From the IMG/VR virus record IMGVR_UViG_2778261594_000007: DNA of 3,646 bases; one strand, 5' to 3'. The notes beneath the pieces are model-generated. The model had not been told where the DNA came from. It did no database searches and saw nothing but the letters and a program-made list of their open reading frames with translations. Position numbers and translations under genes: made by a program. This DNA comes from a virus (lineage: Duplodnaviria; Heunggongvirae; Uroviricota; Caudoviricetes). Positions within the stretch are counted from its first letter, which is position 1. Each line of letters opens with the position of its first letter. Below are positions 1-3,646 of the stretch, one piece after another.

Positions 1-1242
1 ATGGCGAGAAAAACACCCCCATTAACCACAGTACAGATCAAAGCAGCCAGACCAGCAGAAAAGGAATACACCCTACAGGACGGCGGAGGGCTTTTTCTCC
101 TGATCAAACCGTCCGGATCAAAACTCTGGAGATTTTCCTACTACCGACCATCGGACAAAAAAAGAATATTGCTGAGTTTTGGATCGCTTGATGATGTTTC
201 CCTGGCTGATGCCAGAAAACGCCGTAGCGAGTACAGGGCGTTAATTCGTGCCGGAACTGACCCGCAGGACCACGAGAGGCAAAAAAGAGAGACAGAGGCC
301 CGAAGACAAGGGAACACGTTCGAAAATGTGGCAACAGCATGGTACCAGGTGAAAATCAGCCAGAATCTGGCCCCCAATACGATTAAAGACATCTGGCGAT
401 CGCTGGAAAAATATGTATTCCCGTTCATCGGCAACACGCCAATAGACACCCTGACCGCTCGCAGGTTCGTTGAGGTGCTTACCCCCATCAAGGAACGTGG
501 CAACCTGGAAACGCTCAAGCGAGTTTTACAGCGTATAAATGAGGTAATGGATTACGCCGCCAATAGTGGGATGATTGATGCCAATCCGGCTATGAATGTG
601 CGTAAGGCGTTCCCCTCCCCTGTAAAAAAACATATGCCAACAATCCGCCCCGAACAGCTGCCGGAGCTTATGCAGGCTTTATCAGTATCGGCAACAGAAC
701 GGCAGACCAGATTACTGATTGAATGGCAGTTACTGACCGTAACCCGTCCCGTTGAAGCATCGTCGGCACGCTGGGAAGAAATCGACATGGAAGCGCAACG
801 CTGGACCATACCCGCCGGACGCATGAAGATGCGCCGCGACCACGTTATCCCGCTTTGTGACCAGGCTATGGCAGTGCTGGAGGCTATGAAACCAATCAGC
901 CACCACCGCGATTATGTTTTCCCGAGTCTGAAAGACCCACAGCAGCCGATGAACAGCCAGACCGCTAACGCAGCATTACGACGCATGGGATTCGCTGGCG
1001 TGCTGGTGTCTCATGGATTACGCGCCATATTCAGCACAGCAGCGAACGAAGAAGGCTTTGAGCCGGACGTAATAGAGGCCGCACTTGCCCACGTCGACAC
1101 CAACGAAGTCAGACGGGCATACAACCGGAGCAACTACATAGAAAAACGCATCGTGCTTATGCGCTGGTGGGGCGAATTTGTCGAGGCTGCGGCGACGGGC
1201 GTAACCCTCGCCAGTGGTAAAAGGGGTATCCGAGCCGTTTAG
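1..1242 (+). CDS. int: Tyrosine recombinase / phage integrase, P4-type (IntA-like)
   Basis: Complete 413-aa ORF starting at nt 1 and ending TAG 1240-1242. N-terminal arm-type region (GLFLLIKPSGSKLWRFSYYRP) and C-terminal catalytic motifs (RMKMRRDHVIPL; HGLRAIFSTA; VRRAYNRSNY) match my recollection of P4/CP4-57 IntA-like integrases. Not confirmed by search. Confidence 0.93.
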   Translation: MARKTPPLTTVQIKAARPAEKEYTLQDGGGLFLLIKPSGSKLWRFSYYRPSDKKRILLSFGSLDDVSLADARKRRSEYRALIRAGTDPQDHERQKRETEARRQGNTFENVATAWYQVKISQNLAPNTIKDIWRSLEKYVFPFIGNTPIDTLTARRFVEVLTPIKERGNLETLKRVLQRINEVMDYAANSGMIDANPAMNVRKAFPSPVKKHMPTIRPEQLPELMQALSVSATERQTRLLIEWQLLTVTRPVEASSARWEEIDMEAQRWTIPAGRMKMRRDHVIPLCDQAMAVLEAMKPISHHRDYVFPSLKDPQQPMNSQTANAALRRMGFAGVLVSHGLRAIFSTAANEEGFEPDVIEAALAHVDTNEVRRAYNRSNYIEKRIVLMRWWGEFVEAAATGVTLASGKRGIRAV

Positions 1243-1738: not shown

Positions 1739-1945
1739 ATGGAAGCAATCAAAAAAGTCATCTTTCGCCAGGAAGTAAAAAAACTTATCCACATTAAGGC
1801 AGACAGCACGCTGCAAAGCATGATCAACGCCGGAGAATTCCCGCAGGGTTTTCGTGTCGGTTTGCGCCGTCGCGGATGGTATGAGGAAGACGTAATCGCA
1901 TGGATGAAAGAACGCGAACAAGAAGCGCGCGGAACGACCGCTTAA
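1739..1945 (+). CDS. alpA: AlpA/Vis-family small HTH regulator or excisionase (68 aa)
   Basis: SD GAGGT (1725-1729) 9 nt upstream of ATG 1739; stop TAA 1943-1945. The C-terminal motif FPQGFRVGLRRRGWYEEDVIAWMKER aligns by eye with the FP..G...GW.E.E...W...R signature I recall from E. coli AlpA and P4 Vis. The position directly downstream of a P4-type int is the canonical context. Confidence 0.85.
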   Translation: MEAIKKVIFRQEVKKLIHIKADSTLQSMINAGEFPQGFRVGLRRRGWYEEDVIAWMKEREQEARGTTA

Positions 1946-2066
1946 CATATATAGGGCAAATGATGAACATAAAAAAAGCGGCCCCGAAATGGAGCCACCT
2001 TTCTGAACAATTAACCCGCTGCGCCGTATGTGTCAACAATCATAAGCCTGGGCATGATAACCGCGA

Positions 2067-2270
2067 TCAGGCTGGTGGGCAATTATCTTGCTTGTTGGGG
2101 CCGTATTGTGCTGCCATTTTCATCCGTTCGGAACGTGAATATTTTTTTAGAAACTCATCAAGGACAAAAGCGCATGGTGCGAATCTTTCTGATTCATGCT
2201 CGAGCGCCATATTTTCGTGCTCTCTGTTCGTTTTTTGCGATGGTGTATTGGTTGATTCTTTGTTGGTCAT
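2067..2270 (-). CDS. Hypothetical 67-aa hydrophilic protein downstream of the RHH gene (possibly co-transcribed)
   Basis: ORF on the minus strand with AGGT 7 nt upstream of ATG (plus coords 2268-2270); 57-bp gap after the RHH stop and no terminator between them. No recognisable motif, and composition is not obviously protein-like, so this is weak. Confidence 0.3.
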   Translation of the reverse strand: MTNKESTNTPSQKTNREHENMALEHESERFAPCAFVLDEFLKKYSRSERMKMAAQYGPNKQDNCPPA

Positions 2271-2327: not shown

Positions 2328-2504
2328 TTATTCTTTTGATTCTATGCCGCGTTTATCCAACTCACGGCGCAAAAGCCTTTTTATCCATCCTGAGCGGTTA
2401 TCATCGCCATCTTCTTTCATGGCGATGCTTAAGCGTTCGAATAAGTCAGCATCAAGACGAAGCTGTACGGAAAACCTTTCCTTTTTGTTGTCATTGGTTG
2501 ACAT
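2328..2504 (-). CDS. Ribbon-helix-helix (CopG/Arc/MetJ-like) DNA-binding protein, 58 aa; candidate repressor of the element
   Basis: Translation verified codon by codon on the minus strand: MSTNDNKKERFSVQLRLDADLFERLSIAMKEDGDDNRSGWIKRLLRRELDKRGIESKE. It has an N-terminal alternating beta-strand (RFSVQLRL) followed by two helices, the RHH pattern. GAGG lies 6 nt upstream of the ATG. The longer track ORF (199 aa) extends upstream through low-complexity sequence and is probably not real. Confidence 0.65.
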   Translation of the reverse strand: MSTNDNKKERFSVQLRLDADLFERLSIAMKEDGDDNRSGWIKRLLRRELDKRGIESKE

Positions 2505-2526
2505 TGTATACCTCGAGTATAATAAT
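2498..2526 (+). promoter_or_regulatory. Candidate sigma70 promoter for the rightward small-gene operon
   Basis: Seen in sequence: consensus TTGACA (2498-2503); perfect TATAAT (2518-2523) at a short 14-bp spacing, or AATAAT (2521-2526) at 17-bp spacing. Predicted start near 2530-2535. Confidence 0.45.
2500..2512. repeat. Direct repeat copy 1 (GACATTGTATACC), putative operator half-site
   Basis: Seen in sequence: 12/13 identical to copy 2 at 2538-2550; overlaps the RHH start codon and the plus-strand TTGACA. Confidence 0.55.
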
Positions 2527-2550: not shown

Positions 2551-2630
2551 AATGACACCACAAAAGCAAAGCCCGCTGGCGCTATGAACACCAACGGGCT
2601 TCTAACCAACAACGTAAACGAGGAGCCGTT

Positions 2631-2831
2631 ATGGTTGCCGTAAATCATATACCACACCTTGTACACACACAAACGGCCTTTGTGTGGCGTTTTCTGGCAC
2701 TGAGTGCCGGAGAATCTCAAATCATCCACGTAACCGCCTGGACGGAACGCGAAGCGCGTAGCCGTTGCCCGTCCGGTTGTGTTGCTGTATTTGCCGCCCG
2801 TATTCGCCAGGGAGAAACCTATGCACAATAA
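2631..2831 (+). CDS. Hypothetical 66-aa protein, possible first gene of the rightward operon
   Basis: Strong SD GAGGAG (2620-2625) 5 nt before ATG 2631; stop TAA 2829-2831 overlaps the start of the next ORF by 11 nt. Caveat: the ORF contains a hairpin plus T-run (2666-2694) that could instead mark a structured leader. Confidence 0.35.
   Translation: MVAVNHIPHLVHTQTAFVWRFLALSAGESQIIHVTAWTEREARSRCPSGCVAVFAARIRQGETYAQ
2666..2694 (+). promoter_or_regulatory. Hairpin plus T-run: weak terminator or attenuator-like element, or protein-binding inverted repeat
   Basis: Seen in sequence: perfect 8-bp inverted repeat CACACAAA (2666-2673) / TTTGTGTG (2679-2686) with 5-nt loop CGGCC, then GCG and TTTT (2691-2694). 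The stem is AT-rich, so termination would be weak. Confidence 0.3.
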
Positions 2832-3060
2832 AACCACACCGGACGCAGCCGCCGCCGCGCTCACTACGCTGATGCACGCGCTTATTGATATTTCTGTTAT
2901 TGCTGACAGGGCGCATAAGCACGCCACCAGTGAAACAGAATATGCCGGGGCTTTCGTTCCTCATTCGCTGGCGGTTATGCAACTTAGTGCTGATATGGCT
3001 CTGAATGAGGCCAAAGCTATCCTGATTGCTGATTGTGAAAATGGGGGGGGTTATGCGTGA
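2821..3060 (+). CDS. Hypothetical small acidic, alanine-rich protein (79 aa)
   Basis: SD GGAG (2811-2814) 6 nt before ATG 2821; translation verified, ending CENGGGYA, stop TGA 3058-3060. Its stop overlaps the next ORF start (ATGCGTGA), suggesting translational coupling. Confidence 0.55.
   Translation: MHNKTTPDAAAAALTTLMHALIDISVIADRAHKHATSETEYAGAFVPHSLAVMQLSADMALNEAKAILIADCENGGGYA
3043..3050. repeat. G8 homopolymer tract at the junction of two ORFs
   Basis: Seen in sequence: eight consecutive G encoding the GGG of the upstream C-terminus and serving as SD for the downstream ATG 3053. Confidence 0.9.
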
Positions 3061-3274
3061 TGATCGTTTTAATTCCCTGAAACAGGAATTTTCCGGCGTT
3101 CCTGATGATGCGGCTGATGCGCTTTCGTCAATATCTGAAATTATGCGGGTGGCTTTTTTCTTTCTTTGCACTGATGAGCACAGAGATACAGGGCTAAATA
3201 TTCTTGATATTGCCGCTAACTATGCTGATTTCGTGACAGAGGTTATTTTAAGAAAAGCGACGGACGGGGATTAA
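3053..3274 (+). CDS. Hypothetical small very acidic protein (73 aa; about 15 Asp/Glu vs 7 Lys/Arg)
   Basis: ATG 3053 is 2 nt after the G8 tract; translation verified (MRDDRFNSLKQEF...KATDGD); stop TAA 3272-3274. The track's upstream start at 3026 is less likely than the SD-supported ATG 3053. Confidence 0.55.
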   Translation: MRDDRFNSLKQEFSGVPDDAADALSSISEIMRVAFFFLCTDEHRDTGLNILDIAANYADFVTEVILRKATDGD

Positions 3275-3275
3275 T

Positions 3276-3509
3276 ATGCGTGATATTTACCACGAAACAA
3301 CAGATCGCGTATTTCTTGCACTTTCTCACAGTGAAAATATGATGGAAATATTGCGCATATGGCTTGAAACACTTGGCGACAATGAACGCGACAAACAAAA
3401 ATCAAGAATTGCCACGGCATTAATAACGCTTCTTGAGCCTGTAATAAATGAGTTGCAGGAAATAGAGACATTACACGACCAGTATAAAGCGCCCCACACC
3501 GGAGAATAA
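3276..3509 (+). CDS. Hypothetical small acidic protein (77 aa), probably helical
   Basis: SD GGGGA (3266-3270) 5 nt before ATG 3276, which is 1 nt after the previous stop; translation verified (MRDIYHETTDRVF...HTGE); stop TAA 3507-3509. Uses several ATA Ile codons, suggesting foreign AT-rich origin. Confidence 0.6.
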   Translation: MRDIYHETTDRVFLALSHSENMMEILRIWLETLGDNERDKQKSRIATALITLLEPVINELQEIETLHDQYKAPHTGE

Positions 3510-3514
3510 AAATA

Positions 3515-3646
3515 ATGAAACTTAAATATTCTGGCTTAACTGCCAGTGGCAACACTCACCCTAAATTTACGCGCGGTGATATTTACCGCGACCAGTACGG
3601 CGGCACGGTAATGATTAAGGGCGTGGCGGGACGGTGCGTAACTTAC
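3515..3646 (+). CDS. Hypothetical protein, 5' part only (runs off the window end)
   Basis: ATG 3515 with GGAG (3501-3504) 10 nt upstream; 44 codons with no stop to the window end (MKLKYSGLTASGNTHPKFTRGDIYRDQYGGTVMIKGVAGRCVTY). Not in the ORF track because no stop lies within the window. Confidence 0.5.
   Translation, partial: MKLKYSGLTASGNTHPKFTRGDIYRDQYGGTVMIKGVAGRCVTY

Follow-up and report, generated by a model that had tools for sequence, protein, structure and literature searches.

A conserved block of small coupled genes led by an Icd-like gene in a predicted PICI-type phage satellite of Escherichia coli

The window analysed here, a 3,646-nt stretch of the Caudoviricetes record IMGVR_UViG_2778261594_000007, carries at positions 2631-3646 a block of five successive open reading frames (ORFs) on the plus strand, the first of which encodes an Icd-like protein. 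Judged from gene content and order, the window is the left part of an Escherichia coli phage satellite of the phage-inducible chromosomal island (PICI) type, located at tRNA-Pro. The block is proposed to be the promoter-proximal part of the early operon of this satellite, encoding helical proteins that would act with the Icd-like protein, an explanation to which we give about an even chance. Confidence in the anatomy of the block is high; confidence in its role in a host- or helper-directed step is low to moderate. The genes of the block are as follows.

2631..2831, plus strand: ORF1, Icd-like, 66 aa; NCBIfam NF033153 (6.1e-18, 64.6 bits against a cutoff of 25) and phrog_1743 (1.8e-22)
2821..3060, plus strand: ORF2, 79 aa, pI 5.27; phrog_5146 (1e-29) and positions 1-76 of the 154 of phrog_2512
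3053..3274, plus strand: ORF3, 73 aa, pI 4.29; phrog_24341 (7e-42) and positions 78-145 of phrog_2512
3276..3509, plus strand: ORF4, 77 aa, pI 4.95; phrog_2196 (6e-38)
3515..3646 (window end), plus strand: ORF5, 5' part of a DUF4222 protein; PF13973 (2.9e-8, 33.6 bits against a cutoff of 27) and phrog_285

The Icd-like gene (icd) overlaps ORF2 by 11 nt and ORF2 overlaps ORF3 by 8 nt, while gaps of 1 nt and 5 nt separate ORF3 from ORF4 and ORF4 from ORF5, respectively. A purine-rich motif resembling a Shine-Dalgarno (SD) sequence precedes each start (in order, GAGGAG, GGGAGA, a run of eight G, GGGGA and GGAGA). These coordinates, overlaps, gaps and individual SD motifs, recovered from the ORF list and the motif at each start, are as an earlier note on this DNA had given them, and its view that these small, uncharacterised proteins come from a tightly coupled operon with its own switch in an int-alpA satellite is likewise supported. 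The ratio of nonsynonymous to synonymous substitution rates (dN/dS) was estimated pairwise by the Nei-Gojobori method (NG86) on 41-61 distinct alleles per gene. The alleles came from 80 related IMG/VR loci, a Shigella locus and several loci of E. coli genomes. The ratio amounted to 0.31 for icd, 0.30 for each of ORF2, ORF3 and ORF4, and 0.36 for the DUF4222 gene, with comparison values of 0.21 for the alpA-like gene and 0.22 for the downstream orf83 of the island. Most of the variation falls at the third codon position in the plus-strand frames, and ORF4 is fixed at 77 aa across hundreds of 90%-identity clusters. Because of the ratios near 0.3, the third-position variation and the constant ORF4 length, all five ORFs are genes under purifying selection and not chance ORFs or antisense shadows. 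Conservation, synteny and dN/dS had been named in the earlier note as a check on its proposal, and by these measures the block is conserved across related islands and does not evolve neutrally.

Two short repeats were observed within the block. ORF3 and ORF4 share the start ATGCGTGAT (Met-Arg-Asp; 3053-3061 and 3276-3284), and a 16-nt repeat, GTGATATTTACC[A/G]CGA, lies at the ORF4 start (3280-3295) and again inside the DUF4222 gene (3576-3591), encoding DIY in both places. Both repeats may be recombination joints or coincidence.

Of 5426 complete E. coli genomes, 1618 carry the block, with coverage reaching 80% or more in 685. Most of the 80 IMG/VR loci retain the order icd-(o63-like)-ORF2-ORF3-ORF4-DUF4222. 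Since the same slot and order recur in the 1618 genomes and in EcCIEDL933, the published prototype of capsid-forming PICIs (cf-PICIs), the block is better read as backbone than as cargo. The genes flanking it in the IMG/VR loci are mosaic, with several int and alpA types, two unrelated replicases (RepA and DUF927) and packaging ends that consist of PerC, of a fusion of a protease and the major capsid protein (MCP), or of a full cf-PICI set. Near-identical ORF3, ORF4 and DUF4222 alleles (93-100% identical to those of the window) occur with both replicases (loci L004 and L028 versus L030 and L038). As such alleles accompany either replicase and varied int and alpA types, the block recombines as a conserved unit. 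The small-ORF slot itself holds one to five genes: one in strain ES2, three (o61, o63 and o80) in EDL933 and up to five in others. ORF2, ORF3 and ORF4 have many alleles, down to 32-50% identity, which are shuffled between conserved junctions. The block is thus a backbone of conserved position and variable alleles within the regulation-replication module, and not a cargo hotspot. Its genes are drawn as 'hypothetical' in the PICI papers (PMC6092414; bioRxiv 10.1101/2022.09.08.507074). The proposal that the block is an undescribed accessory module carrying cargo does not fit this synteny, which extends over the 1618 genomes, EcCIEDL933 and about 80 IMG/VR contigs; the block is a known yet uncharacterised part of a known kind of element.

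The same distribution bears on the idea that the small proteins, DUF4222 above all, are replication accessory or copy-number factors that modulate the downstream replicase in the way that Cnr acts on alpha in P4. The block lies directly upstream of the replicase, whose start codon is overlapped by the DUF4222 gene by 4 nt, and cnr has the same position in P4. However, a specific partnership with the replicase is disfavoured, because the same ORF3, ORF4 and DUF4222 alleles assort with either a RepA AAA_25 helicase or a DUF927 primase-helicase; moreover, the slot contains anything from one to five small ORFs, and no similarity to Cnr was found. We regard this explanation as distinctly unlikely.

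For comparison with known islands, EcCICFT073 and EcCIEDL933 were taken from the PICI papers of Fillol-Salom 2018 (PMC6092414) and Alqurainy 2022 (bioRxiv 10.1101/2022.09.08.507074). The matching locus of the O157:H7 strain EDL933 (L002) is EcCIEDL933 itself, with the order int, alpA, leftward orf62/RHH (ribbon-helix-helix), Icd-like gene, three small ORFs, DUF4222 gene and DUF927 primase gene, followed by orf83, SSB, PerC and a full capsid and packaging module. PICIs and cf-PICIs share with the present island int, alpA, the divergent RHH/orf62-67 arm, the Icd-like gene, the small-ORF slot, the DUF4222 gene, the replicase, orf83 and SSB. Compared with the window, the Icd-like protein of EcCIEDL933 is 95% identical and its DUF4222 protein shows 77% identity, while its 80-aa ORF, o80, is homologous to ORF4 (hhalign 88%, E 3e-6; cross-hits of PHROG 2196/5796). 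In EcCIEDL933, ORF2 and ORF3 are replaced by o61 and o63, and RepA by a DUF927 primase; it also has the full capsid and packaging module, in contrast to the lone protease-MCP fusion of this island. In the PICI literature searched, no discussion of the small ORFs or of the poly-G tract described below was found.

A functional lead comes from the work of Silas et al. on the prophage of strain ECOR61, where a 'superinfection exclusion / PCD' (programmed cell death) locus consists of an Icd-like gene, overlapping small ORFs and a primase gene. Transposon insertions that suppressed the cell death triggered by the phage accessory gene orf24 fell in the Icd-like gene and in the two ORFs behind it (186 and 192 nt; overlaps of 8 and 1 nt), and the phenotype could be rebuilt only with six linked genes, among them the primase gene (bioRxiv 10.1101/2023.04.06.535777). 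The ORF sizes and overlaps are those of o61 and o63 of EcCIEDL933 and not those of ORF2 and ORF3, and the ECOR61 Icd-like protein differs by an N-terminal extension. Because these transposon hits lie in the equivalent genes, a role of the block together with the Icd-like protein in growth arrest is suggested. The earlier note had placed the block among possible anti-defence genes, whereas the ECOR61 data, the only experimental ones on equivalent genes, point to phage-triggered growth arrest with the Icd-like protein.

The profile matches place ORF1 in the Icd-like family. The complete copy of ORF5 in strain FWSEC0008 (locus L001, 17526-17825, 99 aa) matches PF13973 at 2.1e-23 (82.1 bits) and shows the 4-nt overlap with the replicase start. 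For ORF2, ORF3 and ORF4, Pfam and NCBIfam have no family, in line with the earlier note, which recognised none, but that statement does not extend to PHROG, where all three have families (5146/2512, 24341/2512 and 2196; matches of 1e-30 to 1e-42), each annotated 'unknown function'. The Icd-like protein, the fused form of ORF2 and ORF3 (database protein P0001), ORF4, DUF4222 and RepA matched no defence-system model in PADLOC-DB. In 50,697 phage records, tblastn detected nothing similar to P0001 or ORF4, and profile-based sequence searches of the PDB with ORF2-4 found nothing. A profile search with diverse ORF4 alleles retrieved 627 clusters; among the 120 listed there was no functional name, and all the named ones were from E. 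coli. The ORF2-3 family is narrow, with 50 clusters (50% identity) at E <=1e-3 among 1.84 billion proteins. A peptide-pattern scan with one genome per species returned a single locus, from Shigella flexneri, although this method is narrow and carries little information on host range.

Structures predicted with AlphaFold2 (AF2) show ORF4 as a two-helix hairpin (helices 2-32 and 37-71; best-model pLDDT 90.8) and the fused ORF2-3 protein as two hairpins plus a short helix, with the ORF2 helices at 9-37 and 42-73. Foldseek comparison of the AF2 models with the PDB and BFVD returned only generic helical bundles, hairpins, designed heterodimers and coiled coils at E >=0.3, the best values (0.3-0.5) all belonging to generic helical bundles. 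The predicted folds would fit small protein-binding subunits and contain nothing function-specific. The profile and structure searches proposed in the earlier note thus matched ORF2-4 to no characterised family or fold. In addition, ORF2, ORF3, ORF4 and o63 were compared as possible paralogous hairpin repeats; this was rejected at hhalign probabilities below 1.2%, with shallow as well as more diverse alignments.

The acidity of ORF2, ORF3 and ORF4, which had been called strongly acidic, is moderate: besides the pI values of 5.27, 4.29 and 4.95, their net charges are -5, -8 and -7 over 73-79 residues. Classical DNA mimics such as T7 Ocr have a far higher negative charge. It was speculated in the earlier note that these are acidic DNA-mimic anti-restriction or anti-defence proteins; made early, such proteins would protect incoming or replicating satellite DNA. 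Their small size, helical prediction, pI of 4.3-5.3, early position and allelic diversity agree with such a function. Against it stand the modest charge density (only -5 to -8 per protein), the lack of any match to Pfam anti-restriction families, PADLOC models, PDB sequences or folds (none at E <0.3), including any sequence or fold relation to Ocr, ArdA and similar proteins, and the position of the block in a syntenic backbone and not in a variable cargo hotspot. No positive evidence for the role was obtained, and we consider it very unlikely.

ORF2 and ORF3 meet at a homopolymer that changes the way in which the two are to be counted.

3043..3050, plus strand: G8 homopolymer at the ORF2/ORF3 junction, the only one in the window against 0.06 expected

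In the fused form this tract encodes a Gly linker; it also provides ORF3 with its SD-like motif. The ORF2 stop codon of the window, TGA, lies 3 nt past the ATG of ORF3, and this ATG is kept in every tract state. With one G removed in silico, the product is a 150-aa protein with the exact sequence (100% identity) of P0001, found in 129 contigs, and phrog_2512 is a profile of the fused form, whose 154 positions are covered by ORF2 and then ORF3. Tracts of G7 or G10 give the fused 150-aa protein, while G8, G9 and G11 give split ORF2 and ORF3. With an otherwise identical ORF2 sequence, the G8 product ending in ...ENGGGYA (the form of the window) was found in 523 contigs, the G9 product ending in ...ENGGGLCVMIVLIP in at least 1000, and the G5 and G11 products in a few contigs each; the exact ORF3 sequence occurs in 918 contigs. 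A census of 60 fetched loci, a sample skewed to fused forms by the ranking used, gave G7 in 22, G8 in 18, G9 in 14, G10 in 4 and G11 in 2; between islands, the tract ranges from 5 to 11 or more. Because 7 of 10 groups with near-identical flanks (<=2 differences in 450 nt) hold more than one tract length, the length is taken to change recurrently. Even in loci whose ORF3 bodies are less than 50% identical, the junction GATTGTGAAAAT-Gn-TT-ATGCGTGATGAT is retained. Interrupted, stabilised tracts exist in both phases (GGGGGTGG, GGGGAGGGGGGG, GGGGTGGG and TATGGGG), another ORF2 allele has a normal stop and a G6 SD (...caggggggtaaacATG), and distant relatives include stand-alone N-halves as well as stand-alone C-halves that begin at the ORF3 methionine. 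In relatives of 224 aa, an o63-like domain is fused N-terminally to ORF2-3, which by the gene-fusion argument suggests that o63, ORF2 and ORF3 are physically linked. We read ORF2 and ORF3 as two cistrons that form one functional unit, a two-part locus in which slippage would switch between one fused protein of 150 aa and a pair of coupled products. The five ORFs of the earlier note accordingly keep their coordinates, but ORF2 and ORF3 no longer count as two independent genes.

The frameshift at this tract could also be taken as a sign of decay, with ORF2/ORF3 a pseudogene among dispensable genes of a degenerate island. For the same allele, the out-of-frame G8 (523 contigs) and G9 (at least 1000) states exceed the in-frame G7 state (129), and the only structural gene of the host island is the protease-capsid fusion. 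However, dN/dS is about 0.3 in both halves, and the ORF3 ATG and its G-rich SD are kept in all tract states. It also speaks against decay that some versions are separate genes with an ordinary stop and SD, that others have interrupted tracts stabilised in either phase, and that distant relatives include stand-alone halves. Decay is, in our view, highly improbable.

Poly-G phase variation is known from homopolymeric-tract contingency loci in Neisseria, Campylobacter and others. As in such loci, the ORF2/ORF3 junction has an intragenic G tract of at least 7 bases whose length varies between near-identical sequences. In contrast to them, it toggles fused and split forms and switches no gene off, because ORF3 has its own start; furthermore, E. 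coli mismatch repair is intact. A divergent allele of ORF4 has a second poly-G tract in its loop, GCCGAACAG-Gn-ATTTATTTTC, where G5 and G8 give full-length products of 68-69 aa and G7 and G9 give truncated ones of 47-52 aa. It lies at the following positions.

L070, 3480: second poly-G tract, divergent ORF4 allele
L071, 3602: the same
L024, 3890: the same
L072, 3809: the same
L023, 3517: the same

A literature search on PICIs and homopolymer tracts found neither the ORF2/ORF3 tract nor that of the ORF4 allele. Both tracts might make the early small proteins a contingency locus, in which slippage of the tract, or at G9 perhaps a -1 slip of the ribosome or during transcription, would generate subpopulations with fused, split or truncated helical-bundle proteins, although we think this rather unlikely.

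Upstream of the block, the switch that would drive it has two arms, with the following features.

2067..2270, minus strand: orf67, second gene of the leftward arm; phrog_21027 (2e-12), dN/dS 0.37
2328..2504, minus strand: RHH protein, 58 aa; weak RHH_1 and YlcI/YnfO_N matches, dN/dS 0.26
2498..2526, plus strand: predicted sigma-70-like promoter TTGACA-17-AATAAT, matching 11 of 12 consensus positions in a consensus scan
2568..2602, plus strand: leader hairpin, conserved within the operon leader (2527-2640)
2666-2686, plus strand: terminator-like hairpin CACACAAA-CGGCC-TTTGTGTG followed by GCGTTTTCTG, within the first 20 codons of icd

The RHH protein is the candidate repressor of the switch; both it and orf67 have counterparts in EcCIEDL933, that of orf67 at the same position. 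Direct repeats, TGACA[T/A]TGTATACC, at 2499-2512 and 2537-2550 bracket the predicted promoter, whose -35 element is overlapped by the RHH start codon. Because the rightward promoter overlaps the start codon of the leftward RHH gene, the arrangement resembles a classical divergent switch. Promoter scan, repeat search and profile matches thus recovered the other features of the earlier note, namely a promoter flanked by repeats, an RHH gene divergent from it and the int-alpA surroundings. In the published model, the helper phage switches on alpA and AlpA then activates the island genes (PMC6092414; bioRxiv 10.1101/2022.09.08.507074).

The 3' arm of the leader hairpin, GGGCUUCUA, could instead pair with the SD of icd, which is GAGGAGCC in the window and UAGGAGCC in most related loci. 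By eye, the inner stem varies between loci as pairs (UGG/CCA, AGUG/CACU and ACUG/CAGU). On the minus strand, the same hairpin (2568-2602) with its T-run resembles an intrinsic terminator. A weak promoter-like site, TTGTGT-17-TATGAT, was noticed by eye inside the early part of icd, and it could direct an antisense RNA of about 85-90 nt across the icd start. A scan with Rfam found no C4/CI-type or other RNA family; its sole match, sub-threshold Atu_C8 (E 0.12; 1963-2059, minus strand), is due to the hairpin GGCUCC-AUUUCG-GGGCC with a U-run at about 1971-1995. This hairpin lies just past alpA, is conserved in EDL933, and is likely the terminator of the leftward RHH-orf67 transcript. The hairpin at 2666-2686 may perhaps act as an attenuator, but the same bases, identical in EDL933, also encode a conserved Icd motif. 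We also observed a plus-strand ORF of 247 aa (1900-2643) with an odd Cys/Ser/Arg-rich composition, lying antisense over the RHH gene and orf67. Its EDL933 counterpart (L002 8232-8975, plus strand, also 247 aa) is the gene called by RefSeq, without both leftward ORFs. It could be a shadow ORF, or else a real gene that overlaps the two.

The layout of switch and block invites comparison with two other systems. In immI-type regions, such as c4-icd-ant of P1 and mnt / arc-ant of P22 with its sar antisense RNA, small genes are similarly arranged. The likeness comprises an RHH repressor gene that points away from the promoter of a short first cistron (icd), which is translationally coupled to small effectors behind it, together with a structured leader and a possible counter-transcript terminator. 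The difference is that no homology to Ant, Arc or Mnt is seen beyond the generic RHH fold, and that the downstream genes lead into a replicase. An antisense RNA like that of immI might exist in this island.

The second system is the left operon of P4, with the order vis, cI/Icd-like ORF, epsilon (95 aa), ORF151, cnr (ORF106) and alpha. Both have an AlpA/Vis-type regulator, an Icd-like ORF, three small proteins (95-151 aa in P4) and then a replicase. The P4 'cI ORF' and the Icd-like protein of the window belong to the same PHROG, phrog_1743, which is the only link between them, as direct BLASTP of the two was negative. Fused ORF2-3, ORF4 and DUF4222 were also compared with P4 ORF151, epsilon and Cnr, respectively, and these pairings were rejected for want of similarity. 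This island further differs from P4 in carrying no annotated Sid, Delta or Psu, in giving no C4/CI RNA by Rfam, and in having its operon co-oriented with int.

In P4, epsilon derepresses the helper and is encoded after the Icd-like 'cI ORF', while in P1 Ant follows icd and the two genes are coupled. By analogy, one or more of ORF2-4 may be derepressors that bind the repressor of a resident helper prophage, with an allelic diversity that mirrors that of the helper repressors. The position after the Icd-like gene as in the P4 left operon, the shared phrog_1743, the many ORF2, ORF3 and ORF4 alleles shuffled between conserved junctions, and the small, helical and acidic nature of proteins without a DNA-binding motif are in line with this idea. 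However, neither sequence nor profile comparison relates the proteins to epsilon, ORF151 or Cnr of P4, the phage collection gave no match, and this type of PICI is described as being induced by its helper, not as inducing it (PMC6092414; bioRxiv 10.1101/2022.09.08.507074). We lean clearly against such a derepressor function.

The explanation that we favour is that the block heads an early operon whose helical products act with the Icd-like protein; that it is the head of a regulation-replication operon is argued from the island order shared by L001 and EcCIEDL933. Transcription would start at the repeat-flanked promoter at 2498-2526, which faces the divergent RHH/orf67 arm, and pass through the structured leader into a translationally coupled series of the Icd-like gene, ORF2, ORF3, ORF4 and the DUF4222 gene, and then into the replicase gene, the origin iterons and SSB beyond the window. 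ORF2, ORF3 and ORF4 would be small all-helical hairpin proteins, of which ORF2 and ORF3 work as one unit. They would serve as protein-binding subunits, i.e., helical-bundle adaptors or inhibitors, which together with the Icd-like protein act in the first step after phage induction of the satellite, a takeover of host or helper that is seen as growth arrest. They would then be neither DNA-binding regulators nor enzymes nor defence cargo.

Several points weigh against this explanation. The ECOR61 locus was equated with the EDL933 type by gene sizes and overlaps only, and o61/o63 belong to families different from those of ORF2/ORF3, with no detectable homology between them. Transposon insertions can be polar, although simple polarity on replication seems unlikely because the listed ECOR61 suppressors exclude the large primase gene. 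Among the five AF2 models of ORF4, only the best has a high pLDDT (90.8 vs 59-73), the confidence for fused ORF2-3 is moderate (pLDDT 70, pTM 0.61), and a helical hairpin is a generic fold. At the poly-G junction, the split states are commoner than the fused G7 state by the contig counts given above, an excess also compatible with a relaxed need for the fused form. Homopolymer sequencing error could account for part of the tract variation and so exaggerate it, but neither the stabilised variants nor the large numbers of contigs can be put down to it. The genes, their synteny, their fused and split forms and their predicted folds come from the sequence data; co-transcription, complex formation and the biological role are inferred.

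As for the island as a whole, the complete window has a match in 1405 of the 5426 complete E. coli genomes, the best being 98.6% identical. In one matching genome, that of strain FWSEC0008 (L001), the island is about 9.4 kb long and lies between tRNA-Pro(ggg) and yejO, with the tRNA-Pro 218 bp upstream of the integrase gene; att repeats were not identified in the L001 island. The order in L001 is integrase, orf76, alpA-like helix-turn-helix (HTH) gene, leftward orf67 and RHH, rightward Icd-like gene, ORF2, ORF3, ORF4 and DUF4222, followed by a RepA-like AAA_25 helicase, orf83, SSB and a ClpP-protease/MCP fusion. The remaining genes of the window are as follows.

1..1242, plus strand: tyrosine integrase with P4-type arm-binding, central and catalytic domains; Pfam PF00589 (3.5e-29), PF22022 and PF13356
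1341-1571, plus strand: 76-aa basic ORF, pI 9.9, between int and alpA
1739..1945, plus strand: AlpA-like HTH regulator; weak Pfam Phage_AlpA match (0.003), phrog_66 and phrog_2790 'excisionase and transcriptional regulator' (1e-7)

The integrase marks the left end of the island. The 76-aa basic ORF gave no family match and is kept with one integrase type across related loci. The alpA-like gene, an HTH regulator also by RefSeq annotation, is co-oriented with int, and related loci carry alpA of either the window type or the EDL933 type.

Beyond the window, the L001 replicase (17822-19231) is an AAA_25 RepA-like helicase (1.9e-43), and three AAAAAGTGGGGAGTAAAA iterons within two 45-nt repeats lie directly 3' of its gene (19230-19442), where they are probably the replication origin of the island. 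A replicase followed directly by the origin is a hallmark stressed in the PICI papers (PMC6092414; bioRxiv 10.1101/2022.09.08.507074). At 20743-22632, L001 encodes a 629-aa fusion of a ClpP-like prohead protease to the MCP, the sole phage-structural gene of this island subtype, which was found again in many IMG/VR loci; a literature search for a PICI carrying a protease-capsid fusion yielded nothing relevant. Two 99-nt direct repeats, 74% identical, were observed on either side of this gene (20112-20210 and 22650-22748). Both are G-rich and open with the terminator-like CCGGCTTTTTTG, and they may be pac/cos sites, promoters or recombination joints.

The assignment to the Gram-negative PICIs follows the features by which these are recognised: an integrase with three Pfam domains and site-specific integration at tRNA-Pro/yejO in L001, an AlpA-family regulator co-oriented with int (with a weak Pfam match), a replicase followed by an iteron-type origin (in L001, beyond the window), and a small size of about 9.4 kb without lysis or tail genes, where about 10-15 kb is typical. 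Helper-driven induction, replication and high-frequency transfer have been demonstrated only for EcCICFT073 and EcCIEDL933 (PMC6092414; bioRxiv 10.1101/2022.09.08.507074). The island does not qualify as a cf-PICI, which would carry MCP, protease, portal, head-tail connectors, HNH, TerS and TerL, since L001 has only the ClpP-protease/MCP fusion, besides small ORFs. Nor is it a P4-like satellite, as none of Sid, Delta, Psu, epsilon, cnr or an alpha-type primase is annotated in L001.

If the contingency reading of the poly-G tracts were true, clonal hosts would diversify their sensing of, or response to, incoming phages in a form of bet-hedging, for example in which phage protein triggers the Icd-linked growth arrest or island induction, a layer that is not described for phage satellites in the literature searched. 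For annotation, the 79/86-aa and 73-aa 'genes' and the 150-aa gene should be treated with caution, as they are one locus, and the fused/split junction offers a natural genetic handle in its G7, G8 and G9 alleles. The genes of the block occur in about 30% of complete E. coli genomes, including Shiga toxin-producing (STEC) and O157 strains, as well as in the prototype cf-PICI. As the Icd-led head of an induction operon, the block would provide a testable entry to helper sensing and induction toxicity in Gram-negative PICIs, an entry point that the transposon link from ECOR61 strengthens.

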